The notes under the pieces: model-generated
Database searches by the model: none
What the model saw: only the letters and a program-made list of their open reading frames with translations
What the model was told of the DNA's origin: nothing
Assembly: GCA_964557535.1 (NCBI GenBank)
Contig: CAZLAD010000001.1
Span: forward strand, 58,482 to 122,481
Direction of reading: 5' to 3'
From: an uncultured Candidatus Saccharibacteria bacterium
GTDB taxonomy: Bacteria; Patescibacteriota; Minisyncoccia; Phycocordibacterales; CSBR16-119
Length of the DNA: 64,000 bases
Shown here: piece after piece, positions 12,448-61,386 of the stretch
Position numbering within the stretch: position 1 is the first letter of the stretch
Layout: every line of letters begins with the position of its first letter
Translations under genes and position numbers: made by a program

Positions 12448-12477
12448 GTTTTGGGTATAACATTTGAAAATGTCGTA

Positions 12478-12582
12478 TTGTTAAAAGTTCGCGTACGCGG
12501 ATTTTTAACAATATTTAGATTTATTAATATATTAATAAATTCATAAATCCGTAAATTCATAAACTAATTTATGAATTTACGG
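12478..12582. repeat. Cluster of three consecutive palindromes in the holB-to-GC-island spacer
   Basis: (1) TTGTTAAAA...TTTTAACAA enclosing the palindrome CGCGTACGCG (12478-12511). (2) A perfect 22-nt palindrome ATTTATTAATATATTAATAAAT (12519-12540). (3) CCGTAAATTCATAAA-ctaa-TTTATGAATTTACGG with 15-bp arms (12549-12582). Confidence 0.8.
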
Positions 12583-12638
12583 ATCTTAATACCTTACATC
12601 AGTTAGGTGATGCAAAGGTATTGAACTATTACGGAGAC

Positions 12639-12666
12639 TTGACAAGAATTTTGATTCGTGTATAAT
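12639..12666 (+). promoter_or_regulatory. Near-consensus sigma70 promoter (TTGACA-16-TATAAT)
   Basis: TTGACA at 12639-12644 and TATAAT at 12661-12666. An AAAGAGG RBS-like motif lies 10 nt upstream of the ATG at 12724. Confidence 0.7.
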
Positions 12667-12723
12667 ACCCCACGAACCAAAGCTCTTGTGGCAATATCGC
12701 CACATACAAAAGAGGTTCGCAAA

Positions 12724-13215
12724 ATGCCCCAATTCCTCAAGCGACCGTGGCACGTCCTCGGTCTGGTGGCCTTGTTGGCCATCGGTTATACGATCCCACT
12801 GCAGATGAAGGCCGCCAAGTTCGACAGCTACACCGCCAGCGCGCTGACCGTTCCGGATGATCCGGCGCTCGTGACCCACGACCGGTTGGCCGTGAGCTAC
12901 GAGAACCATTTCGCCAATTGGACCCTGATCGACGGCCGCGGCACCAGCACGGTGAGCGTGACCACGGATGACCCGTGGAGCGTGAGCACCAGCGAAAGCC
13001 CGCATTTCGAAGGATATCAGCATTACATCATCGAGAACTTCAAGCACGACGTGAACTTCAGCATTTCGGATGTGAACGTGAGCGCCCAGGTGGCCGGTGG
13101 CCTGCTGGTGCCCATCGTGGGCCCGGCGGACAGCGATCATCAGCGATGGAGCAGTACGGCCCGCGATTACCGTTTGGCAGTGCGCGTGGTGAACCTGCGA
13201 ACGTGTCGGTGCTAG
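12724..13215 (+). CDS. Secreted or exported hypothetical protein (about 164 aa) in a 60% GC cassette
   Basis: N-terminal hydrophobic signal/TM (WHVLGLVALLAIGYTIPLQ). GC3-rich, E. coli-like codon usage (ctg, ggc, agc, acc, ccg), which is foreign to the host. It has its own promoter upstream and a terminator downstream. The antisense ORF 12586..13221 is judged an artefact. Confidence 0.55.
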   Translation: MPQFLKRPWHVLGLVALLAIGYTIPLQMKAAKFDSYTASALTVPDDPALVTHDRLAVSYENHFANWTLIDGRGTSTVSVTTDDPWSVSTSESPHFEGYQHYIIENFKHDVNFSISDVNVSAQVAGGLLVPIVGPADSDHQRWSSTARDYRLAVRVVNLRTCRC

Positions 13216-13285
13216 AAGCACGAGCTTCCTAGCACCTTCACTCTTTCCGCCCGCACGGGAACCCCCGAGCGAGTAGGAAACCCCG

Positions 13286-13319
13286 AACCCCGGCCCGTAA
13301 GCCGGGGTTCTTCTTTTTT
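13286..13319 (+). terminator. Rho-independent terminator of the GC-rich cassette
   Basis: Stem AACCCCGGC/GCCGGGGTT with loop CCGTAA, followed by TCTTCTTTTTTA. Confidence 0.8.
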
Positions 13320-13333
13320 ATAAAACAAATTTC

Positions 13334-13342
13334 TGCTACAAT
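13334..13342 (+). promoter_or_regulatory. Extended -10 TGcTACAAT 6 nt upstream of the frr ATG (leaderless)
   Basis: TGCTACAAT, then ttgccc, then ATG at 13349. Confidence 0.55.
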
Positions 13343-15011: not shown

Positions 15012-15127
15012 CCCAAATCTCTGGGGTTGACAGGTATTTGACATTAATTTGCTTTAATGATAGTATACAAACTACAAAGATTTTGAATTTAAAAAGAATA
15101 AATTATTAGCAATTTAAAGGTATATTT

Positions 15128-16165
15128 ATGGCAATTATTTCCTTCAGACCAAAACAAGTTAGTAAGAAGCTTTTGTCCTCCCTCAAGGACCGTTCTTTTG
15201 ATGTCATTGCGAACCGCTATGGTCTCACGGATGATGCCGAAAGAAAGACTCTAGAGGCTATTGGACAGAAGTACGGAATTACCCGCGAACGTGTTCGACA
15301 GATTGAAAATACCGCTTTGGCCACGATTCGCAAGTCAAAGGAAATGTCCGAATCACAAGAGGTTTTTGATGAATTAAAAAATCTTTTACACTCTCTCGGT
15401 GCTATTGTGTCCGAAGAAGAGTTTTTGGAACATGTTTCGAAAGATAAATCGACACAAAACCACATCCATCTATATTTGGTTTTGGGTGATGAATTTGAGA
15501 AGTCTAAAGAAGATGACGATTTCAACGCGCGTTGGTCCTTAAATCACGAAATTGTCGAAAACGTTCACGAGGCTTTGCGTAAACTCTATGCATCTTTGGG
15601 TGACGACGAACTTCTTCCAGAATCGAAAATCGTAGAAAAATTCCTCAGTTTCATCAAGACTGTTTCTGAAGAGCATCGCGATGCTGAAATTGCTAAACGA
15701 TGGTTGCGATTATCAAAGAAGGTTGGCAAAAATCCTTTGAATGAATGGGGCAAGGCTGAATCTAAAAATGTCAAAACTCGCGGTGTCAAAGACTACACAT
15801 TCCTCGTGATGCGAAGACATGGTGAACCTATGCACTTCCGAGAAGTCGCCGAGGCCATCACAAAAACTTTCAACAGAAAGACTTTGGCTGCCACTACTCA
15901 TAACGAACTAATCAAAGACCCTCGTTTTGTTCTTGTTGGACGTGGACGATATGCGTTACGTGAATGGGGTTACAAACCAGGAATAGTGCGCGAAGTCATC
16001 GAAGGCATTATCCGAGAAAATGGTCCAATGACCAAAGACGAAATTGTCGACGCAGTTCTAAAAGAAAGATTTCTAAAAAGAAACACTATCCTCGTAAATC
16101 TCCATAACCCAAAATATTTCAAGAAACTCAAAGACGGACGATACGATAACGTTTCAAGTAAGTAA
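15128..16165 (+). CDS. Sigma-70 region-4 HTH fused to a C-terminal HARE-HTH winged helix; putative transcription factor
   Basis: The N-terminus LTDDAERKTLEAIGQKYGITRERVRQIENTALATIRK is an excellent sigma region 4.2 match. The C-terminus FREVAEAI...HNELIKDPRFVLVGRGRYALREWGY matches the HARE-HTH signature of the RNAP delta subunit. No sigma regions 2 or 3 are present. Confidence 0.6.
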   Translation: MAIISFRPKQVSKKLLSSLKDRSFDVIANRYGLTDDAERKTLEAIGQKYGITRERVRQIENTALATIRKSKEMSESQEVFDELKNLLHSLGAIVSEEEFLEHVSKDKSTQNHIHLYLVLGDEFEKSKEDDDFNARWSLNHEIVENVHEALRKLYASLGDDELLPESKIVEKFLSFIKTVSEEHRDAEIAKRWLRLSKKVGKNPLNEWGKAESKNVKTRGVKDYTFLVMRRHGEPMHFREVAEAITKTFNRKTLAATTHNELIKDPRFVLVGRGRYALREWGYKPGIVREVIEGIIRENGPMTKDEIVDAVLKERFLKRNTILVNLHNPKYFKKLKDGRYDNVSSK

Positions 16166-16173
16166 GAAAGAAC

Positions 16174-16262
16174 ACAAAAAGCCGTTTATAAATTTTTTCC
16201 CCTGCGAAAGCGTGTCTACGCACTAAAGTCCTCGGGTTCAAAAATTTATAAACGGCTTTTTG
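16174..16262. repeat. Long inverted repeat (23-bp AT-rich arms around a 42-nt GC-richer loop) between 15128..16165 and the next gene
   Basis: CAAAAAGCCGTTTATAAATTTTT ... AAAAATTTATAAACGGCTTTTTG. The loop contains GCGTGTCTACGCAC. It is immediately followed by a TGcTACAAT -10. Confidence 0.7.
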
Positions 16263-16265
16263 CTA

Positions 16266-16274
16266 TGCTACAAT
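16266..16274 (+). promoter_or_regulatory. Extended -10 TGcTACAAT 6 nt upstream of the ATG at 16281 (leaderless)
   Basis: TGCTACAAT, then tattcc, then ATG. Confidence 0.5.
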
Positions 16275-16280
16275 TATTCC

Positions 16281-17528
16281 ATGGAATTTTTTGCAATGTT
16301 TTCTGAACCACTTTTACCGAAGGTTTTTTCTATGCTTACTAAAGCCCTACTTTATCTTTCTCCCATTATTTTAATTTTCGTGGGTTGGCATCTGTGGGTT
16401 AGACATCGAAATGCCGAATGGATATCTGAGCTTAAATGGGTATTACTTGAAATAAAAGTGCCCAAAGATATTTACAAAACTCCGCGTGCGATGGAGATAG
16501 CCCTTGGCAATGCATTGTCCCAGACCGGGGGCATAGGCACACGATACAAGAAATATTGGGAGGGTAGGGTACTTTTTTGGTTTTCTCTGGAGATAATTTC
16601 TATTGAAGGGGAAATTCGTTTTTTGATTCGAACTCCTAAAAATTTTCAAAACATAATTCAGTCACAAATTTATGCCCAATATCCTCAAGCAGAAATATTT
16701 GAGGTGCCGGATTATACTTTGGATGTTTTGCGTTCCATGCAGGAAGAAGAATGGGGTATGTGGGGTTGTGAACAACATCTTAAAAAACCCGATGCTTATC
16801 CAATAAGAACATATTCGGATTTTGGTTTGGATAAAGCCACCACCAAAATCGAAGAAGAGGCCGGACTTATAGATCCGATCGTCTCACAAATTGAATGGAT
16901 GGGAACAATGGGAAAGGGCGAGCATTTTTGGATGCAAATACTCGTTCGATCTACAAAAGATAGTTATATCAATCCTTATTCTCTCATACCTAAAACAGAA
17001 GACTGGAAAGACAAAGCCAAGAGGGAAATGGAAAAAATCAAAGCAAAATATGACGGCGCTGACGCGATAGATAAACTTGGCAAGGCTTTGAAAATGTCCA
17101 AAGCCGAACAAGAAGTAATAAATGCCATTGAACGAAGTCTAGACAAGCCAGCTTTTGACGTTGGAATCAGGACTTTGTATGTGGCCAAAAAAGATAATTT
17201 CCGCCCAGAACATATTGCTGGCCTGGTCGGGTTTATGAGACCATATGGTTCGAACAATTTAAATAGTTTTAAAATTGCCAATGAAACTGATTTTGACAAT
17301 CCGTGGGAAGATATATCTGGAGACGGTAAAATTGGCAAGAAACTAGATATGTTGAGAGCATATGTCGAACGAGGTTATTTTTATCCGCCTTTCAAGGGGC
17401 AATACTATGTTTTGACTGCCGAAGAATTGGCCACGATTTATCACTTTCCAGGACGAGTATCCACGACTCCGACATTCAAACGCATCGAGTCTAAAAAGTC
17501 CGAACCGCCAGTCAATTTACCGCTTTAA
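16281..17528 (+). CDS. Hypothetical membrane-anchored protein (about 415 aa)
   Basis: N-terminal TM (ALLYLSPIILIFVGWHLWV) followed by a large soluble domain with a conserved-looking C-terminus (LTAEELATIYHFPG). No recognisable family. The start is chosen after the -10; the ORF track gives 16260. Confidence 0.55.
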   Translation: MEFFAMFSEPLLPKVFSMLTKALLYLSPIILIFVGWHLWVRHRNAEWISELKWVLLEIKVPKDIYKTPRAMEIALGNALSQTGGIGTRYKKYWEGRVLFWFSLEIISIEGEIRFLIRTPKNFQNIIQSQIYAQYPQAEIFEVPDYTLDVLRSMQEEEWGMWGCEQHLKKPDAYPIRTYSDFGLDKATTKIEEEAGLIDPIVSQIEWMGTMGKGEHFWMQILVRSTKDSYINPYSLIPKTEDWKDKAKREMEKIKAKYDGADAIDKLGKALKMSKAEQEVINAIERSLDKPAFDVGIRTLYVAKKDNFRPEHIAGLVGFMRPYGSNNLNSFKIANETDFDNPWEDISGDGKIGKKLDMLRAYVERGYFYPPFKGQYYVLTAEELATIYHFPGRVSTTPTFKRIESKKSEPPVNLPL

Positions 17529-19116: not shown

Positions 19117-19788
19117 ATGACCAGCGAAAGCTACGAGAAACTCTGCGTGCTCTTGCTGAAAGAGAGACGCGCCCTCGAAGAATCTTTGGGCCGATCGATG
19201 GGACGTTTCGGTCTCATTATGGACGAGCTCGAGGTTACGTTCGTTACCTGGAACTGGATAAGAATTTCTTTCACGGCTAGCATCGTGGGTAAGGGTTCCA
19301 GTAAGCTCTCTTTCATGTTCGTGCCTTCTCCAGCCATGAAAAGTAAGGCGGTCGTTCGTACGCAAGTTGGATCACCCCACTTCGTGATGGGCGCTGACTG
19401 TGAACCGAAGGACCTCTTACTTGCCATCCGTCGCGATGTGTCGTACTCCTACGTAGGTTATCGTGCCGAACGTCTGGCTGTCCGATACTTCGAGAAGCTT
19501 GCCAAGACCTATCCACACATTCTGTCTGTGCGATTGGCTACGCTAGAAGAAGACGCCAAGCGTATGGACGTGATCGTTCGTGCGCGATTCCCGGGATTTC
19601 CAGAGACCGATGTGCCAATACAGATCAAATCAAGAGAGAGGGAACAGAAATACCATCGTGCCGACAAAGAGAAGGCGGGAGTTCCTTCAATTCTTATGCC
19701 CAGGAAGGTCTCGTTTGATCGACTCTGTCCGGGGATGAAAGGAATTCTGCGAGCCTTTGTTTGCAAGGGGCAGGCAATGCACATCTGA
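19117..19788 (+). CDS. Hypothetical protein (223 aa) in a GC-elevated islet
   Basis: About 52% GC. Coherent ORF with a downstream terminator. No recognisable motifs. Confidence 0.45.
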   Translation: MTSESYEKLCVLLLKERRALEESLGRSMGRFGLIMDELEVTFVTWNWIRISFTASIVGKGSSKLSFMFVPSPAMKSKAVVRTQVGSPHFVMGADCEPKDLLLAIRRDVSYSYVGYRAERLAVRYFEKLAKTYPHILSVRLATLEEDAKRMDVIVRARFPGFPETDVPIQIKSREREQKYHRADKEKAGVPSILMPRKVSFDRLCPGMKGILRAFVCKGQAMHI

Positions 19789-27759: not shown

Positions 27760-28746
27760 ATGGTTGAATCAAATATTATATTGCCATCGAAACCACGACT
27801 GGTTTTGGAAGAGGGGAACAAGGGGGTATACGAGATAGACAATCTCTATCCGGGTTATGGACATACTCTGGGTAATTCTTTGCGACGCATAATTTTGTCG
27901 TCTTTGACTGGCGCGGCTATTACGAGTTTGAAAATCGACGGTGTCGATCATGAATTTGCCGTCATGGATGGTGTCAAAGAAGATGTTTTAAATATTATCT
28001 TGAACCTAAAGAAAGTACGTTTTAAAGTAATTGGTGATGAACCACAAGTTGTAAACCTCAAATGGAAAGGCGTTGGTCAAGTTACCGCCAAAGATATCGA
28101 AGTTTCTGGACAAGTCGAGATTCTTTCGGGAGATCAATACATTTGCGAAGTCACGGACAAGAAAGCTGAATTAAATATTGAAATCTATGTTCAGAAAGGC
28201 TTGGGCTATGTTTCCAAAGAAGAAATTCAAAAAGAAAAGATGTCTATCGGTCATATTGCCGTTGACGCCATCTTTACACCAATCCGCCGAGTTTCTTATG
28301 AAGTCGAAAACATGCGCGTAGGTGATTCAACAAACTACAACAGACTTCGTATTTCAGTTGAAACAGACGGTACTTACACGCCTCGAGAAGCCGTCGAAAG
28401 ATCAATCGAAATTATGATTCTTCAGCTTCAGTCAATTCATGATTTCAAAGGACTTGATGAAAAGCCAGAAGCGATAATTGAAGCAGTTGAGAAAGAGATC
28501 AAAGATGTTCACAATGAAAAAGAGCTTGCCGAAGGCGAAGAAGAGAAAGAGGTCATGAAAACACGCATCGAAGACCTAAATCTTTCTACTCGCACATTGA
28601 ACGCCCTAACAAATGCGAAGATTAGGACAGTCGGTGGCATTGCCAGAAAGACAAGTGAGGATTTGCTCGCCGTCGAGGGTATGGGGGACAAGGGCTTACA
28701 AGAAATTAAGCGCACCTTGAGTAATTTTGGAATTCTGCTAAAGTAG
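27760..28746 (+). CDS. rpoA: DNA-directed RNA polymerase alpha subunit
   Basis: Alpha NTD plus CTD (LNLSTRTLNALTNAKIRTVGGIARKTSEDLLAVEGMGDKGLQEIK). Confidence 0.93.
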   Translation: MVESNIILPSKPRLVLEEGNKGVYEIDNLYPGYGHTLGNSLRRIILSSLTGAAITSLKIDGVDHEFAVMDGVKEDVLNIILNLKKVRFKVIGDEPQVVNLKWKGVGQVTAKDIEVSGQVEILSGDQYICEVTDKKAELNIEIYVQKGLGYVSKEEIQKEKMSIGHIAVDAIFTPIRRVSYEVENMRVGDSTNYNRLRISVETDGTYTPREAVERSIEIMILQLQSIHDFKGLDEKPEAIIEAVEKEIKDVHNEKELAEGEEEKEVMKTRIEDLNLSTRTLNALTNAKIRTVGGIARKTSEDLLAVEGMGDKGLQEIKRTLSNFGILLK

Positions 28747-44344: not shown

Positions 44345-44459
44345 TCCCGTAAGAGATGTTTTGTTAAAAACAATCACTTCGCGGGTAGGGGTTCGAAGAG
44401 TTATTTAATTACAAAAATTAACAGGGTACGCAAATTAATAATTTGCTATCTCTAACGGG
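44345..44459 (+). repeat. IR-bounded element E2 (115 nt) ending at the ATG of a 49-aa membrane ORF
   Basis: TCCCGTAAGAGAT ... TACGCAAATTAATAATTTGCTATCTCTAACGGG followed by ATG. It begins 14 nt after the trpS stop. Confidence 0.75.
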
Positions 44460-44609
44460 ATGAAAAATTTTGTTTTGGGTTTGGTTTTTGTTTTGATTTT
44501 GATTGCGGTTATCGTTTTATTCAAGAGAATGGGCGAAGAGAAAGAACCAGAACTTAGGAGCTTGGACGAATTTTCAAATATTCAGGAGGGCGACATATTG
44601 CCACAATAG
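44460..44609 (+). CDS. Small hydrophobic protein (49 aa), putative
   Basis: MKNFVLGLVFVLILIAVIVLFKRMGEEKEPELRSLDEFSNIQEGDILPQ. The start codon is the ATG that terminates element E2. A terminator follows. It is below the ORF-track length cutoff. Confidence 0.4.
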   Translation: MKNFVLGLVFVLILIAVIVLFKRMGEEKEPELRSLDEFSNIQEGDILPQ

Positions 44610-49071: not shown

Positions 49072-49151
49072 ATCCCGATAGTGAAAGCGGTCGCTTTCGG
49101 GAGAATTACTGGTATTTATTAATCTAAAGACCGCAAACTATCACTATCGGG
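49072..49151 (+). repeat. IR-bounded element E3 (short variant, 80 nt) ending at the aspS ATG
   Basis: AATCCCGATAGTGA ... TCACTATCGGG followed by ATG. Internal palindrome GAAAGCGGTCGCTTTC. Confidence 0.7.
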
Positions 49152-50573
49152 ATGCAATCAAGAACTTATATCCGCGATCTTTCGAGTCGCGCTGGGGAAG
49201 AAGTCGTCATAAAAGGCTGGATTCAGATTCGCCGTGACCAGGGGAAAATGATTTTCTTTGATTTTCGTGACGCCACCGGCGTCGTGCAGGGCGTCGTCCT
49301 TCCGGGTTCTAATGCTATGGATACGGCCAAAGAAACTCGCTCCGAATGGGTGGTTGCGGTCACGGGAAAAGTAAATGCTCGCCCTGAAAAAAATATCAAA
49401 GTCGGGGTTTTAAACGGTGACATCGAACTTGAAGTTTTGGGTATGGAAGTTTTAAACAAGGCCGAGACTCCGCCATTTGATATTTTGGCCGATACGCGCG
49501 AAGTCAACGAAGAAACACGTCTGACCAATCGTTACATCGATATTCGTTCCGAACGCCTCCAGAAAAATCTGCGCATGCGTCACAAGGTTCAGAATTTTGT
49601 GCGAGCAAATTTGGACGCGCAAAATTTCGTGGAAGTTGAAACTCCAATTTTCACCAAATCCACTCCCGAAGGCGCTCGCGATTATGTCGTACCATCTCGC
49701 ATTTATCCGGGAAACTTTTACGCGCTTCCACAATCTCCGCAACAATACAAACAACTTCTCATGGCTGGTGGCATGGAACGCTACTATCAATTCGCTCGTT
49801 GTATGCGTGACGAGGACCTGCGCGGTGATCGCCAACCAGAATTTACTCAGCTCGACATGGAAATGTCTTTTGCGACCGAAGAAGATGTCATGGCGGTGAC
49901 CGAAAATCTGCTCATAAAAATTGTCACAGAGCTTTATCCTGAGAAAAAAATTCAAGCAATTCCTTTCCCGAGAATTCCTTATAAAGAAGCGATGGAAAAA
50001 TATGGATCCGATCGGCCGGACATTCGCGAAAACAAAGAAGACCCAAACTCTCTCGCGTTTTGCTGGGTAGTGGATTTTCCATTTTTCGAAAGAACTGACA
50101 AATCTGACAATCCTCAGGCCGAGGGAGAATGGACATTTACTCACAATCCGTTTTCGATGTGCAAACCAGAGCATTTACCAAATGTTATGAACAAGGAAAA
50201 TATTGGTGATGTTCTCGCGGCGCAATACGACATCGTCCTCAATGGTTATGAAATCGGCGGGGGATCGATTCGTGCGCATGATCCGGAGATTTTGAAAAAT
50301 ATTCTCGGCATCCTCGGCTACACTCCAGAGAAAATCGAAACCGACTACGGCCACATGCTTCGGGCGCTTGCATCCGGCACGCCTCCGCACGGCGGACTTG
50401 CTTGGGGCTTTGATCGTCTGATGATGATTCTCCAAAACGAACCGAACATCCGCGAAGTTATTGCATTTCCGAAAACTCGAGAGGGAAGAGATCCAATGAT
50501 GCAATCACCGTCACCAGTTTCGGATAAACAACTCGCGGAACTAAATATTTCGATAAATAAAAGAAGGGAATAA
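49152..50573 (+). CDS. aspS: Aspartyl-tRNA synthetase (short form without GAD insertion domain)
   Basis: N-terminal OB anticodon-binding domain. Class II motifs (FRDATGV...; GGGSIR; GLAWGFDRL). 473 aa. Confidence 0.93.
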   Translation: MQSRTYIRDLSSRAGEEVVIKGWIQIRRDQGKMIFFDFRDATGVVQGVVLPGSNAMDTAKETRSEWVVAVTGKVNARPEKNIKVGVLNGDIELEVLGMEVLNKAETPPFDILADTREVNEETRLTNRYIDIRSERLQKNLRMRHKVQNFVRANLDAQNFVEVETPIFTKSTPEGARDYVVPSRIYPGNFYALPQSPQQYKQLLMAGGMERYYQFARCMRDEDLRGDRQPEFTQLDMEMSFATEEDVMAVTENLLIKIVTELYPEKKIQAIPFPRIPYKEAMEKYGSDRPDIRENKEDPNSLAFCWVVDFPFFERTDKSDNPQAEGEWTFTHNPFSMCKPEHLPNVMNKENIGDVLAAQYDIVLNGYEIGGGSIRAHDPEILKNILGILGYTPEKIETDYGHMLRALASGTPPHGGLAWGFDRLMMILQNEPNIREVIAFPKTREGRDPMMQSPSPVSDKQLAELNISINKRRE

Positions 50574-51773: not shown

Positions 51774-51875
51774 AATCCCGATAGTGATTATAAGTCGGGT
51801 TAAATAATTTACTTAGATAAAGTTTGTAATTTGTTGTAAAATGAAAAAATCTCTTAATCAATAATCACTATCGGG
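51774..51875 (+). repeat. IR-bounded element E4 (102 nt) filling the scpA-scpB spacer
   Basis: AATCCCGATAGTGATTA ... AATCACTATCGGG followed by the scpB ATG. It begins 2 nt after the scpA stop. Confidence 0.75.
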
Positions 51876-52430
51876 ATGAATTTGGAATCAAAAATCGAAT
51901 CTTTTTTGTTTTGGAAAGGTGAACCGCAGACAGAGTGGGAGATAGCTGTTGCTATGCGAGTTGATCCGGCTGAAATTCCGGGAGCCCTGGCAAAGCTCGA
52001 AGAATCGCTAAAAGGCCATGGTGTTACACTTGTCCGTCATGGAAACAAGGTGATGCTTGGCACGAATCCCGAAATGTCACATTTTTTTGAAGAACTTCAG
52101 AAAGAAGAACTGAGCAAAGAACTTTCCAAAGCTGCGCTCGAGACACTTTCGATAATTCTCTACAAGGATTCGGTGACGCGAAGCGAGATAAATTTTATTC
52201 GCGGAGTGAACTCAGGATACATCTTGAGAAATCTGGAAATTCGCGGATTGGTGGAGAAAGCAAACCAAAAAAACGATGCCCGCACGTATGTTTACAAGCC
52301 GACTCTCGAATTGTTATCATATCTCGGGGTTTCCAAGGTCTCCGATTTGCCACAGTTCGAAACGATCAGAAATACACTCGAGACCAAGCTCTCCGGTCAG
52401 CCAGATCAGGAAGGAAATGAATCCCGTTAG
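51876..52430 (+). CDS. scpB: Segregation and condensation protein B
   Basis: Tandem winged helices (ALETLSIILYKDSVTRSEINFIRGVNSGYILRNLEIRGLVEK). Confidence 0.85.
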   Translation: MNLESKIESFLFWKGEPQTEWEIAVAMRVDPAEIPGALAKLEESLKGHGVTLVRHGNKVMLGTNPEMSHFFEELQKEELSKELSKAALETLSIILYKDSVTRSEINFIRGVNSGYILRNLEIRGLVEKANQKNDARTYVYKPTLELLSYLGVSKVSDLPQFETIRNTLETKLSGQPDQEGNESR

Positions 52431-52539
52431 AGATTGATTGGTTACAAATTCAGAAAAAAGCGGGTAGAATACGAAGGGTAAATTAATTATAAATTTTAAT
52501 ACAAGCTACGTCGCGCCGGGTGCGACTATCTCTAACGGG
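52421..52539 (+). repeat. IR-bounded element E5 (119 nt); left IR overlaps the scpB stop codon
   Basis: ATCCCGTTAGAGAT at 52421-52434 contains the scpB TAG. ...GTCGCGCCGGGTGCGACTATCTCTAACGGG is followed by ATG (dacA-like). Confidence 0.75.
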
Positions 52540-53481
52540 ATGAAGATTAGAATTAAAGAATCCGAAAGACAAATTATATTTGCGATGGTCTTACTGGCCA
52601 TCGTGGGTGTTTTTTATGTTCGTCAAATAAATCAAGAAATTATTTTAGGTGAAATAAAAGACAAAGAAATTCTCGCATACGAGGAATCGATTAAACCGTT
52701 TTTGAACTTGGCGCTCGAGGCCAAATCTTTCGCTATTTATGACGCTGATATAAATAATTTTGTTTACAAGAAAAACGCCGAGAGCGCCATGCCGCTTGCA
52801 AGTCTGGCCAAAGTCATGAGCGCGATTGTGGTGATGGAGAATGCACCGGCCGACACGGTGTTTGAAATTTCCAAAGAATCGCTTGACCAAGCCGCCGATC
52901 ATGGACTTCTACTTCATGAGAAATGGACTCGTGACGAACTTTTGAAATTTGCGCTACTTGTCTCTTCAAATGACGCTATTCACGAGCTTGCACTTGAAAC
53001 AGGCCAGATCATGGATCCCGAAGCCAAAGACTCGCTCCAAGTTTTCGTAGCGCGTATGAATACCAAAGCATCCGAACTAGGGCTCAAAAGTTTTGTCTTC
53101 AAAAACGAATCAGGACTTGATCTAAATGAAGCAGAAAATGGTGCGTATGGTTCGGCGCGCGACATGGCCAAACTTTTTGCTTACGCGGTCAAAACCTATC
53201 CAGAAATTTTTGACGTAACTCGCACCAAGATTGCGACGATTGCCTCACTTGATAAATCGCACAACATCGACAACACCAACACTGTCGTCGAAGAAATTCC
53301 TGGAATTGTCGCTTCAAAGACTGGATTTACGACTCTCACTGGTGGGAATTTGGTCGTAGCGACAACCCCCGATGCCAAATCAACTCGCGTTATGATAGTC
53401 ATGGGATCGACATATGATGAACGCTTTACCGACATGAAAACTCTCACCAGTGCCGTGGCCCATAGTAACAATAATTTATGA
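52540..53481 (+). CDS. dacA: D-alanyl-D-alanine carboxypeptidase (S11, PBP5/6-like)
   Basis: SLAKVMS (SxxK), SSND (SxN) and KTGFT (KTG) motifs. N-terminal TM or signal. Confidence 0.8.
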   Translation: MKIRIKESERQIIFAMVLLAIVGVFYVRQINQEIILGEIKDKEILAYEESIKPFLNLALEAKSFAIYDADINNFVYKKNAESAMPLASLAKVMSAIVVMENAPADTVFEISKESLDQAADHGLLLHEKWTRDELLKFALLVSSNDAIHELALETGQIMDPEAKDSLQVFVARMNTKASELGLKSFVFKNESGLDLNEAENGAYGSARDMAKLFAYAVKTYPEIFDVTRTKIATIASLDKSHNIDNTNTVVEEIPGIVASKTGFTTLTGGNLVVATTPDAKSTRVMIVMGSTYDERFTDMKTLTSAVAHSNNNL

Positions 53482-56521: not shown

Positions 56522-56638
56522 ATCCCGTTAGAGATGTCGTAGTCAAAATTATTCAGGAAGGTTATAAAATAATGGTCGTCAATTACTTACAAAATATTAA
56601 GTCAGATACGCAAACCAAAGTTTGCTATCTCTAACAGG
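56522..56638 (+). repeat. IR-bounded element E6 (117 nt) filling the ftsW-murG spacer
   Basis: ATCCCGTTAGAGAT ... GGTCGTCAATTACTTACAAAAT...GATACGCAAACCAAAGTTTGCTATCTCTAACAGG followed by the murG ATG. Confidence 0.75.
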
Positions 56639-57769
56639 ATGAAAATTGTTATTACAGGCGGTGGTTCGGGAGGGCATTTTTATCCTGCTATCGCAATAGC
56701 AGAGAAGTTGAACGAACTTGCATTGGCTGAAAAAATTTTAGATCTTGAGCTTTTTTATATTGCCGACACCCCATACGACAAACGCGCGCTCGACGACAAT
56801 CGAATGACTTTTTTGGAACTAAATACTGGAAAACAAAGAACATATTTTTCTGTTCAAAATTTTTTTGATATCTTCAAAACTTTTTTCGCGACAATTCGAG
56901 CAATTTTTATCCTTTATAAAATTTTTCCAGATGTTGTTTTCTCCAAAGGTGGCTATCCGTCGGTTCCGGTGACTATTGCTTCGAGAGTGCTTGGGATACC
57001 TGTCGTTATCCACGAATCAGATTCTGTACCTGGACGCGCCAACAAAATGGCTGGTAAGTGGGCAAAACGTATTGCGATTTCTTACAAAGAAGCTTCGGAT
57101 TATTTCCCCAAAGAAAAAACCGCTTTCGTTGGACACATTGTCAGAAAAGAAATTCGAACACCGCTTAGAGAGGGGGCTTTTGAATATCTAAAATTAAAGT
57201 CTTCTTTGCCTGTTATTTTTATTTTGGGTGGTTCGCAAGGTGCCAAGATAATAAACGAGACGATTTTAAATGCTTTGCCAGAGCTTGTCACGAGATATCA
57301 AATTATCCATCAGACAGGAGTAAAAAATTTTGAAGAAGTGAAAATTATTGCCGATCTAAATCTAAAAGAATCAGAAGCCAAACAAAATTATTATCCATAT
57401 CCATATCTAAACAAACTAGCCATACGTATGGCGGCGGGGGTCGCGGAGCTTGTCGTCTCTCGTGCGGGAGCAAATTCTATTGCCGAAATAGCATCATGGG
57501 GACTACCGTCTATCATCATCCCGATAACAAAAACAAATGGTGATCACCAGCGCAACAATGCGTTTAACTATGCTGAAACAGGAGCATGTGTAGTAATCGA
57601 AGAATCCAATTTGGCTCCGAATGTTTTGATCGAAGAAATAGATAGGCTTTTTGCTGATACAGCGACCTTTAAAAACATGAAGGAAGCAACATCAAAATTT
57701 GTTTTTCCAGACGCCGAAGAAAAAATTGCCCGAGAGATAATTAATATCGGACTTTCCCATGAGCAATAA
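56639..57769 (+). CDS. murG: UDP-GlcNAc:MurNAc-pentapeptide GlcNAc transferase
   Basis: N-terminal GGGSGGHFYPA loop. GT-B fold. C-terminal UDP-binding region. Confidence 0.9.
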   Translation: MKIVITGGGSGGHFYPAIAIAEKLNELALAEKILDLELFYIADTPYDKRALDDNRMTFLELNTGKQRTYFSVQNFFDIFKTFFATIRAIFILYKIFPDVVFSKGGYPSVPVTIASRVLGIPVVIHESDSVPGRANKMAGKWAKRIAISYKEASDYFPKEKTAFVGHIVRKEIRTPLREGAFEYLKLKSSLPVIFILGGSQGAKIINETILNALPELVTRYQIIHQTGVKNFEEVKIIADLNLKESEAKQNYYPYPYLNKLAIRMAAGVAELVVSRAGANSIAEIASWGLPSIIIPITKTNGDHQRNNAFNYAETGACVVIEESNLAPNVLIEEIDRLFADTATFKNMKEATSKFVFPDAEEKIAREIINIGLSHEQ

Positions 57770-59060
57770 TATTGTCACAAGAATGGCGCCGTCCCCGACG
57801 GGGAAATTTCATATCGGTTCTGCTCGAACGGCGCTTTTTTCATATCTTTTTTCTCGACACCATAATGGCAAATTTATTCTGCGTATCGAAGACACCGACA
57901 AAGAACGTTCGAAACCAGAATTTGAGGCGAACATTATCGAATCTTTCGAATGGCTTGGTCTTAAGTACGATGAATTTTATCGACAATCAGAGCGCACCGA
58001 AATATACAAAGAACAATTGAAAAAATTGATTGATTCTGGTTCGGCTTATGTTTCCAAAGAAGAAATTAAAGAAGTTGGCGACAGGGAAGAAGTAATCCGT
58101 TTCAAAAATCCGAACATCAAGATTAAATTCGAAGACGTTGTCCTCGGAGATATTGAATTTGATACGACTGACCTTGGGGATTTTGTTATTGCCAAAGATT
58201 TAGAAACACCTCTTTATCATTTAACTGTGGTTGTTGATGACGGTCTCATGGGAGTAAGTCATGTAATCCGCGCTCAGGAACACCTGTCAAATACTCCAAG
58301 ACAAATACTTATCCTCGAGGCGCTGGGCTTTGCTAGGCCGATTTATGCGCATATTCCGCTTGTCCTCGCTCCGGATAAGACCAAGATGTCGAAAAGGCAT
58401 GGTGCGACGGCGCTCCTTGATTTTCGCGATATGGGATATCTGCCGGAGGCCGTTTTGAACTTCTTGGCATTTCTCGGCTGGAATCCTGGAACGGAACAAG
58501 AGCTTTTCTCACTTGAAGAATTAGTCAAAGAATTTTCACTCGAAAAAGTCCAGAAATCGGGTGGCGTTTTCAATATCGAAAAATTAAATTGGTACAACAA
58601 AGAATACATCAAGAAAATGTCACAGGAAGTATTGCTTACCGAGATCAAAAAATATTTGGATTGGCCAGAAGACATGATTATGCGCGCCAAAGAGGCCATC
58701 GTTGAACGTATCAATAAATTCTCTGATTTGTCGGACGAGGCGGAATTTGGATTTTACAAAACTTTGCCAGATTACTCGGCCGAAAATCTGATTTGGAAAA
58801 AGTCTGACAAGGAAAAAACTTTGGTTCACTTAGAAAAAATGCGGGACATGCTTTCGAACGCTGATTTCACTTCTGTTGATTCTATAAAAAATGCTGTTTG
58901 GGATTATGTCGAAGTGAATGGCAGGGGTGACGTCTTGTGGCCAACCCGATTTGCACTTTCTGGCAAGGATAAATCTCCCGATCCAATAACGCTTGCGTAT
59001 ATTTTTGGAAAAGAAGAAACAATAAAGCGAATTAGTTTAGCCATAGATAAAATTAAATAG
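57759..59060 (+). CDS. gltX: Glutamyl-tRNA synthetase (short form)
   Basis: PSPTGKFHIGSART (HIGH) and KMSKR motifs. 433 aa. Overlaps the murG end by 11 nt. Confidence 0.92.
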   Translation: MSNNIVTRMAPSPTGKFHIGSARTALFSYLFSRHHNGKFILRIEDTDKERSKPEFEANIIESFEWLGLKYDEFYRQSERTEIYKEQLKKLIDSGSAYVSKEEIKEVGDREEVIRFKNPNIKIKFEDVVLGDIEFDTTDLGDFVIAKDLETPLYHLTVVVDDGLMGVSHVIRAQEHLSNTPRQILILEALGFARPIYAHIPLVLAPDKTKMSKRHGATALLDFRDMGYLPEAVLNFLAFLGWNPGTEQELFSLEELVKEFSLEKVQKSGGVFNIEKLNWYNKEYIKKMSQEVLLTEIKKYLDWPEDMIMRAKEAIVERINKFSDLSDEAEFGFYKTLPDYSAENLIWKKSDKEKTLVHLEKMRDMLSNADFTSVDSIKNAVWDYVEVNGRGDVLWPTRFALSGKDKSPDPITLAYIFGKEETIKRISLAIDKIK

Positions 59061-60937: not shown

Positions 60938-61056
60938 TCCCGGTAGTGATACCTCGGTTTTGGATGGGATAATTAGTAATCTAACCACGGTCGTGAATTC
61001 TTTACAAAAAACTAACTTCGATACGCAAATTTAATAAATTTGCTATCACTATCGGG
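60938..61056 (+). repeat. IR-bounded element E7 (119 nt) ending at the ATG of the 61057 gene
   Basis: TCCCGGTAGTGATA ... CCACGGTCGTGAATTCTTTACAAAAAACTAACTTCGATACGCAAATTTAATAAATTTGCTATCACTATCGGG followed by ATG. It contains the same CACGGTCGTG motif as the grpE promoter region. Confidence 0.75.
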
Positions 61057-61386
61057 ATGATAAAAATCCTCGTCGGTGTGATTCTCTTGCTTGTTGTGCT
61101 CGGACTTTTGGGTGTATCTGTCCAGCACGATGTTATCGAACATGAAGGTGTTCAAGAAAACGTCTCGTATGTCTCGACAGGGGTCGTGGGATTTTGGAAT
61201 ACATATTTATCTCAACCCGCGCAATGGTTATGGCAAGAACTCATTGTAAATATTCTCTGGGAAACTTTTGCTCGAAATATGGAACGTCTACGTGACGGCG
61301 AGACTCCGACTGACTTCACCAATTCGCACCTCGACGACTGGCCAAGTATCCCGGAACTTATCGACAATTACAACGCGAATAATTAA
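61057..61386 (+). CDS. Hypothetical membrane-anchored protein (109 aa)
   Basis: N-terminal TM (IKILVGVILLLVVLGLLGV). No motifs. Confidence 0.45.
   Translation: MIKILVGVILLLVVLGLLGVSVQHDVIEHEGVQENVSYVSTGVVGFWNTYLSQPAQWLWQELIVNILWETFARNMERLRDGETPTDFTNSHLDDWPSIPELIDNYNANN

Follow-up and report, generated by a model that had tools for sequence, protein, structure and literature searches.

A free-standing sigma-70 domain 4 joined to four predicted winged helices in a conserved Parcubacteria protein family

What is a bacterial protein that carries the promoter-reading end of a sigma factor and little else of it? The question is raised by a gene in a 64,000-nucleotide stretch of DNA from an uncultured Candidatus Saccharibacteria bacterium (GenBank assembly GCA_964557535.1, contig CAZLAD010000001.1, forward strand, positions 58,482 to 122,481), here called the window. 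The coding sequence lies at 15128..16165 on the plus strand, starts with ATG and encodes 345 residues plus a stop codon. The original prediction, made from the sequence alone, described an unusual fusion of a sigma-70 region 4 helix-turn-helix (HTH) with the HARE-HTH winged helix of RNA polymerase (RNAP) delta, without sigma regions 2 or 3. In the structural model presented here, the protein is a free-standing, complete domain 4 of the primary-sigma type followed by four tandem winged helices, the third of which is the HARE-HTH. Added here are this five-domain architecture, the breadth and fixed synteny of the family, and a tandem -35 hexamer specific to the promoter of the family gene.

Profile searches uphold both domain calls, each of which lies above its Pfam gathering threshold: Sigma70_r4 covers residues 15–69 (48.6 bits, cut-off 24.1, E 5.5e-13) and HARE-HTH (PF05066) covers residues 220–280 (43.8 bits, cut-off 25.9, E 3.5e-11). 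The motif LTDDAERKTLEAIGQKYGITRERVRQIENTALATIRK corresponds to residues 33–69 and the motif HNELIKDPRFVLVGRGRYALREWGY to residues 258–282. The predicted absence of sigma regions 2 and 3 also stands, as Pfam finds no match to Sigma70_r2 or Sigma70_r3 in the 345 residues, and for Sigma70_r2 none at E≤1. NCBIfam sigma models reach residues 9–79 only, with 20–52 bits against cut-offs of 42.9–800. A PDB sequence search with the single protein and with a profile of 51 family members matched only region 4 of RpoD, SigA and RpoS; the best E value for the family profile was 1e-20, and the alignments extend to the sigma C-terminus. When regions 2–4 of E. coli sigma70 were used as a tblastn query, region 4 alone was matched. 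These results place the protein among sigma-70 region 4 proteins and outside the region 2 family.

Is the protein then a sigma factor or a delta subunit? Judged by its domain content, it is neither. It fails as a sigma factor because region 2 is absent. It shares domain sigma-4 with primary, group 1 sigma factors (RpoD/SigA) and lacks regions 1.2, 2 and 3, which leaves no core-binding or -10-melting module; its sigma-4 stands at the N-terminus, ahead of the winged helices. It fails as delta because its score is below the cut-off (28.8 bits against 42 for the NCBIfam delta model TIGR04567), its HARE-HTH is internal, and it has no acidic tail. In the delta subunit (RpoE) of Firmicutes, a different phylum, the HARE-HTH is N-terminal, whereas here it occupies residues 220–280 and is preceded by about 215 residues. 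Delta has a polyanionic C-terminal region with a net charge of -47 (PMC7749165). In its place, the last 61 residues of the window protein form a folded, basic winged helix with a net charge of +4. Membership in the HARE-HTH family itself is well supported, both by the score above the gathering threshold and by an H-S-H-H-S-S succession of helices (H) and strands (S) at residues 220–277, modelled with a predicted local distance difference test score (pLDDT) of about 88–91. The protein is also not MzaA, the sigma of the MZA anti-phage system: the NCBIfam model scores 51.9 bits against a cut-off of 800 and matches region 4 only, as does the PADLOC match to MzaA (27.7 bits), and the neighbouring genes are housekeeping genes.

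Aravind and Iyer, writing in 2012 in Cell Cycle 11:119, reportedly described, from computational analysis, bacterial HARE-HTH proteins that combine RNAP alpha-subunit and sigma features by joining HARE-HTH to HTH modules of the sigma type, and may thereby have noted architectures related to that of the present family. The 345-residue window protein differs from that description in having no detectable alpha-subunit C-terminal domain (alpha-CTD; Pfam RNA_pol_A_CTD). As a separate matter, a role as substitute for a lost alpha-CTD was considered and ruled out, since the RpoA encoded in the window (27760-28746) keeps RNA_pol_A_CTD (E 3.4e-17). Parcubacteria have been stated to have lost the alpha-CTD (PMC8321222); in the source cited there for the loss, 'RNA polymerase', 'rpoA', 'alpha subunit', 'sigma' and 'C-terminal domain' are all missing from the text.

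The full-length AlphaFold2 model, built on an alignment of 30 sequences, has a mean pLDDT of 89 and a predicted TM-score (pTM) of 0.71. It contains the sigma-4 HTH at residues 8–69, followed by four consecutive H-S-H-H-S-S units. Sigma domain 4 (15128..15352, plus strand, residues 1–75) is complete: it has region 4.1, region 4.2 and the beginning of the C-terminal helix of sigma. It is of the primary-sigma type, with a net charge of +6. Winged helix 1 (15353..15544, plus strand, residues 76–139) is acidic, with a net charge of -9 and a pLDDT of about 92. Winged helix 2 (15545..15769, plus strand, residues 140–214) is neutral (0) and is the least confident part of the model, with pLDDT 73–77 near residues 171–190. 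Neither of these two has a Pfam match. Winged helix 3 (15770..15979, plus strand, residues 215–284) is the Pfam HARE-HTH and is basic, with a net charge of +8. Winged helix 4 (15980..16162, plus strand, residues 285–345) is also basic (+4) and has no significant Pfam match. The same pattern, with sigma-4 and winged helices 3 and 4 basic and winged helix 1 acidic, is found in the family at large: among 138 diverse members the mean net charges are about +5 for sigma-4 and, for winged helices 1 to 4, -3, 0, +5 and +5. Thus the two domains of the predicted fusion are both there, and the two-domain architecture was incomplete. Nor is the HARE-HTH the C-terminal part of the protein, as had been proposed, since another winged helix (residues 285–345) comes after it and two more (residues 76–214) come before it.

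How were these winged helices related to one another and to known proteins? Pfam searches with the separate middle and C-terminal segments returned only noise, and a phmmer search of residues 76–345 against the PDB returned no match. Comparison of the five modules by hhalign gave no significant internal similarity, the best pair being winged helices 3 and 4 (E 0.004, probability 8.6%); it is thus their structure, and not a demonstrated duplication, that identifies the four winged helices. In fold comparisons the model resembled sigma-4 chains as well as proteins with one winged helix or several in tandem. Arrays of three to four winged helices also occur in eukaryotic initiation subunits and other proteins (RPC62/C82, Dcc1 and UFL1-DDRGK1), and the resemblance is at the level of the fold only. 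The hits were 8b9x (E 1.3e-4) and, more weakly, Dcc1 and RPC62, at 10–14% identity and a global TM of about 0.2, and we claim no homology from them.

The same architecture is widespread, so that 'unusual' does not hold in the sense of rare: it recurs at the same length in at least 588 species genomes and in 569 sequence clusters. In a collection of 5.8 billion proteins, all 8000 scored candidates passed E 0.001. The top 120 matches are 327–356 residues long, 64–90% identical over 95–100% of the query, and all carry PF04545 and PF05066. An exhaustive phmmer search of representatives at 50% identity gave the 569 clusters, at E≤1e-30; the cluster representatives listed are full-length, 33–55% identical and mostly 330–390 residues long. 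The at least 588 confirmed relatives come from a scan of one genome per GTDB species, and all 80 loci retrieved from it belong to Paceibacterota, Nomurabacteria, Zambryskibacteria, Parcubacteria or similarly labelled metagenome-assembled genomes. When the search was seeded with a 35%-identical member, Taylor-, Campbell- and Lloydbacteria joined the family. Databases name these proteins 'hypothetical protein' or, at NCBI, 'sigma factor-like helix-turn-helix DNA-binding protein', and one fragment 'RNA polymerase delta subunit'. With the family of that NCBI name in Parcubacteria the window protein shares full-length homology (33–90% identity), length, both Pfam domains and gene neighbourhood, and we found no difference. 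By homology, architecture and length it belongs to the Parcubacteria Sigma70_r4 plus HARE-HTH family of about 340–350 residues. On this evidence the gene is this genome's orthologue in a family present as one copy across Parcubacteria (Paceibacteria), and its product an ordinary member of a very large, database-catalogued, uncharacterised family that appears, from its distribution, to be fixed across the class. Such conservation rules out a chance or artefactual fusion. Longer 'variants' were examined and set aside as gene-call run-ons or chimeras (a SecF fusion, P0193; an AAA_14 chimera, P0129). A literature search returned nothing on this architecture or family, and no experimentally studied member was found in the searchable literature.

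Which residues does the family keep? Conservation was assessed in sets of 51 to 138 members, the 138 representatives sharing only 33–55% identity with the window protein. There are two hot spots. The first is the HTH of sigma region 4.2, with T41, L42, G46, T52, R53, E54, R55, R57, Q58 and I59, together with R30 and G32. In these sets each of T52, R53, E54, R55, R57 and Q58 is either invariant or conserved at 90% or more, and the -35-reading helix TRERVRQIE is among the most conserved parts of the family. In a BLASTP alignment to E. coli sigma70 these six residues correspond to T583, R584, E585, R586, R588 and Q589; T41, L42 and G46 align with T572, L573 and G577, and R30 and G32 with R562 and G564. 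R22 aligns with R554; R30 is invariant and R22 is kept in roughly 80% of the 138 members. The residues at these aligned positions are reportedly the ones that contact the -35 element in the Taq sigma-A/-35 structure of Campbell et al. (2002). The activator-contact positions of sigma70 differ: K593, R596 and K597 align with T/A, A and T. The second hot spot is the recognition helix and wing of the HARE-HTH, that is, winged helix 3. It comprises T256, H258, N259, E260, L261, I262 and D264, followed by the pattern F.L.GRG.YAL.EWGY.PG, in which the wing residues G271, R272, G273, Y275, L277 and G281 are conserved. Because docking on the RNAP beta-flap alone would not require invariant base-reading side chains, the first hot spot is an argument that -35-type DNA is still recognised by the sigma-4 module.

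If so, where might it bind? The promoter of the gene itself (15038..15066, plus strand) offers a candidate. It consists of a -35 TTGACA at 15038-15043, a 17-nucleotide spacer, the TGn of an extended -10 at 15058-15060 and a -10 box TAGTAT at 15061-15066. With 10 of 12 consensus positions matched and the TG present, it is, by its sequence, strong. The -35 hexamer and the TGATAGTAT -10 box are kept in the close relatives L085, L086 and L087 (L numbers designate related loci). A second, perfect TTGACA lies at 15027..15032 on the plus strand, 11 bp upstream of the promoter -35 when measured start to start. It has no matching -10 of its own and, at about -46 to -41, lies on the same face of the DNA as the sigma-4 of a bound holoenzyme.

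This tandem hexamer is specific to the promoter of the family gene. In 83 loci (1.01 Mb, both strands), TTGAC-N6-TTGAC is found 12 times in the 200 nucleotides that precede the family gene and nowhere else. Promoter-like sites ahead of the family gene number 57–60 in 83–86 loci; with three loci added, 13 of 60 carry the tandem hexamer, compared with 0 of 177 other promoter-like sites, the raw counts being inflated by the relatedness of the loci. Shuffled upstream regions gave a mean of 0.018 occurrences. The spacing is sharply peaked, with 13 cases at 11 bp against 1, 2 and 2 at 9, 10 and 12 bp. Carriers of TTGACA-N5-TTGAC[AT] represent at least 4–5 lineages with only 59–67% protein identity in common: the window with L086, a Nomurabacteria-type clade, L037 and L080. 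In these lineages both hexamers are conserved while the 5-nucleotide spacer and the flanks drift.

The simplest reading of the distal hexamer is that it is an operator for the sigma-4 module of the gene's own product. We tentatively favour, with somewhat less than even confidence, a DNA-bound transcription factor that reads -35 hexamers and is autoregulated where the tandem hexamer exists. Its sigma-4 module would recognise TTGACA of the -35 type in the manner of region 4.2 of a primary sigma. Further contacts to DNA, or possibly to RNAP, would come from winged helices 3 and 4, which are basic, and the acidic winged helix 1 and the neutral winged helix 2 would serve as spacers or protein-contact modules. 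In the window genome and several related lineages the factor would probably regulate its own promoter: bound to the extra TTGACA at about -46 to -41, it would lie one turn of the helix before the -35, beside the sigma-4 of the holoenzyme. The original prediction had suggested -35 binding, and this part gains support from contact residues that are invariant or nearly so in 138 members and from the promoter-specific second TTGACA. What is observed is the set of domains and their fold, the size and synteny of the family, the conserved residues and the tandem hexamer found at this promoter only; DNA binding itself, the target sequence, and autoregulation with its sign are inferred.

Several points weigh against this reading. 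Only about one in five orthologous promoters has the distal hexamer, and two of three close relatives (L085 and L087) and the distant clades lack it, so autoregulation through it cannot be the universal function of the family. A further difficulty to be explained is that a sigma-4 able to bind every TTGACA would be in competition with the housekeeping sigma throughout the genome. On the structural side, residues 74–216 gave a poor model by themselves (pLDDT 54.5), so that the call of winged helices 1 and 2 comes only from the full-length model. Finally, the conserved EWGY.PG segment roughly corresponds to the delta segment that cross-links to beta'.

A contact with beta' belongs to another explanation, in which the protein mimics sigma-4 by docking on RNAP: its sigma-4 would sit on the beta-flap tip and replace region 4 of the housekeeping sigma, its HARE-HTH would bind beta' as in delta, or both. 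The protein would then be an accessory subunit, a sigma competitor or a recycling factor and not a sequence-specific DNA binder; the decoy proposed in the original prediction is of this kind. We consider this unlikely. A pure flap decoy needs no invariant -35 base-contact residues, and the second TTGACA, specific to one promoter, would be left unexplained. With the beta-flap tip on one side of RNAP and the beta' jaw on the opposite one, dual docking by a compact 345-residue protein would be improbable, and the protein has no acidic tail like that of delta.

A complete, primary-sigma-type region 4 with an invariant DNA-reading helix could also be the trans-acting part of a split sigma factor that works with a separate sigma-2 partner, or a second sigma-4 built into the holoenzyme. 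The family genomes use -35 elements of the TTGAC type, and the family is apparently present throughout the clade, as such a role would have it. There is reportedly a precedent for region 4 without region 2 in the two-subunit sigma SigO-RsoA of Bacillus subtilis, described by MacLellan et al. in 2009, in which one protein bears region 4 and lacks region 2. The window gene, however, has no adjacent region-2 partner: by tblastn, sigma region 2 is encoded neither in the 64-kb window nor in about 1 Mb of 84 related loci, and no sigma-2-only gene adjoins the family gene there. The protein begins right at region 4.1, without a region 3.2 linker, and its winged-helix array, which sets it further apart from SigO-RsoA, would be four modules without an explanation. 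It also differs from that system in being conserved among housekeeping genes rather than in a stress operon. To our knowledge, bacteria including the candidate phyla radiation (CPR) encode a full RpoD. We regard a split or two-subunit sigma as the faintest of the prospects considered here. A wider form of the idea, a second trans-acting sigma-4 of the Parcubacteria machinery that is either the -35-reading half of a split housekeeping sigma or an RNAP-associated subunit through which the holoenzyme could recognise two -35 hexamers in tandem, one helical turn apart, is in our view a long shot.

The favoured reading, a -35-reading transcription factor, also has to be set against a role in reading modified DNA, and here the gene neighbourhood is informative. 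The genes in this part of the window follow one another as mreB, holB, an inserted open reading frame (ORF), frr, rseP, the sigma-4/winged-helix gene, a 422-residue membrane protein of the family DUF8128, mltG/yceG, a DnaQ-like exonuclease, an ORF without assignment and mnmA. Relatives at 65–86% identity keep this order, in some cases with bipA added. Distant lineages have other genes upstream (leuS), but DUF8128-YceG-MnmA is again found downstream; the position upstream of DUF8128-YceG...MnmA is found in the window and in L001-L003, L085, L086, L088 and L089. By this comparison the gene sits in a conserved housekeeping gene order. HARE-HTH domains have been proposed as readers of modified bases in restriction-modification contexts (PMC4738411, PMC11037411), and the protein might be such a reader or a nucleoid-associated protein, its HARE-HTH and other winged helices sensing methylated or otherwise modified DNA and coating the chromosome and its sigma-4 serving as a generic HTH. 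Three basic modules of a DNA-binding type, and a strong promoter that suggests abundance, would fit. Against this, no restriction-modification or defence gene lies beside the gene in any locus examined, the PADLOC match to MzaA covers region 4 only, and the invariant -35-reading residues argue for sequence-specific recognition. We give this possibility little credence.

In L087 (GCA_041389105.1, JAWKSO010000004.1) gene calling breaks most of the housekeeping neighbours (frr, rseP, yceG and alaS) into short pieces but leaves the sigma-4/winged-helix gene whole; the fragmentation probably reflects an indel-rich assembly and not gene decay.

Directly 3' of the stop codon lies the long inverted repeat noted in the original prediction. 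It is real: the arms at 16175-16197 and 16240-16262 (16175..16262, plus strand) form a perfect 23-bp stem around a 42-nucleotide loop, flanked by an A-run and a T-run, with a predicted RNA folding energy of -35.5 kcal/mol (z -6.6). Orthologues have unrelated GC hairpins and T-runs straight after the stop codon. Because a hairpin and T-run stand at the matching position there, the repeat is taken as an expanded intrinsic terminator of the gene, which is a separate transcription unit with its own promoter and terminator. The right arm overlaps the -35 region of a promoter-like site of the next gene (16245-16274).

That next gene (16260..17528, plus strand) encodes the 422-residue membrane protein, which had been taken for an ORFan. 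Its syntenic orthologues are Pfam DUF8128. A DUF8128 gene directly follows the sigma-4/winged-helix gene in nearly every Parcubacteria locus examined (L001, L085, L086, L088 and L089 among them), even where the upstream genes differ; in L001/L002 a 162-residue ORF stands between the two. The start codon is probably the ATG at 16282 (MEFFAMF...). An extended -10, TGCTACAAT, lies at 16266-16274, about 7 nucleotides before this ATG. The same arrangement is seen in L085 and L086, which suggests that the DUF8128 mRNA is leaderless. By synteny DUF8128 is a conserved neighbour of the sigma-4/winged-helix gene.

Elsewhere in the neighbourhood, roughly 900 nucleotides between holB and frr (12450-13340) look like a lineage-specific insertion. 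Within them, AT-rich palindromes cluster at 12475-12584, and there are a promoter of perfect consensus, TTGACA-16-TATAAT (12639-12666), a 185-residue ORF of higher GC content (12658-13215) with a hydrophobic N-terminal segment and no Pfam match, and a strong terminator (13285-13310). At this place L085 has a gap of about 490 nucleotides and L086 has a 171-residue ORF. Between the DnaQ-like exonuclease and mnmA, a 223-residue ORF (19117-19788) has a raised GC content (0.49) and no Pfam match; L001 has an unannotated 215-residue ORF in the corresponding position, and L085 and L086 have none.

Two features concern the window as a whole. The 13-mer TCWCTAWCGGGAT occurs in 12 copies where 0.19 would be expected, at 2482-2600, 44449-44461, 49072-49153, 51775-51877, 52421-52541, 56522-56640 and 61046-61058. 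Ten copies form five inverted pairs around 50–105 nucleotides of non-conserved intergenic DNA, and the other two stand singly; the last two bases of the right-hand copy are the AT of the ATG with which the next gene starts. Since the 13-mer is absent from 87 related loci, including relatives with 82–86% identical proteins, it is, within this comparison, specific to the window genome. Its role may lie in the control of translation or transcription, or it may be a small mobile repeat. Across positions 1-64000, ARAGORN finds no tRNA or tmRNA gene and no Rfam family reaches the gathering threshold, although these 64 kb are densely packed with housekeeping genes, among them those for ribosomal proteins, rpoA and several aminoacyl-tRNA synthetases.

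What does the family mean for the biology of these bacteria? For annotation, a defined five-domain architecture can replace 'unusual fusion' and 'hypothetical protein', and the tandem TTGACA turns the vague proposal that the protein could bind the -35 element into a directly testable claim. We know of no experimental study of transcription in CPR/Parcubacteria. If the protein associates with RNAP instead of acting from DNA, it would be a new kind of accessory subunit, and if a second sigma-4 does act in trans, promoter recognition would be divided differently from that in all studied bacteria. The family appears fixed in its class, has a strong promoter and carries the exact DNA-reading helix of a primary sigma while the remainder of sigma is missing, which makes it a promising candidate for a general transcription factor particular to this lineage.

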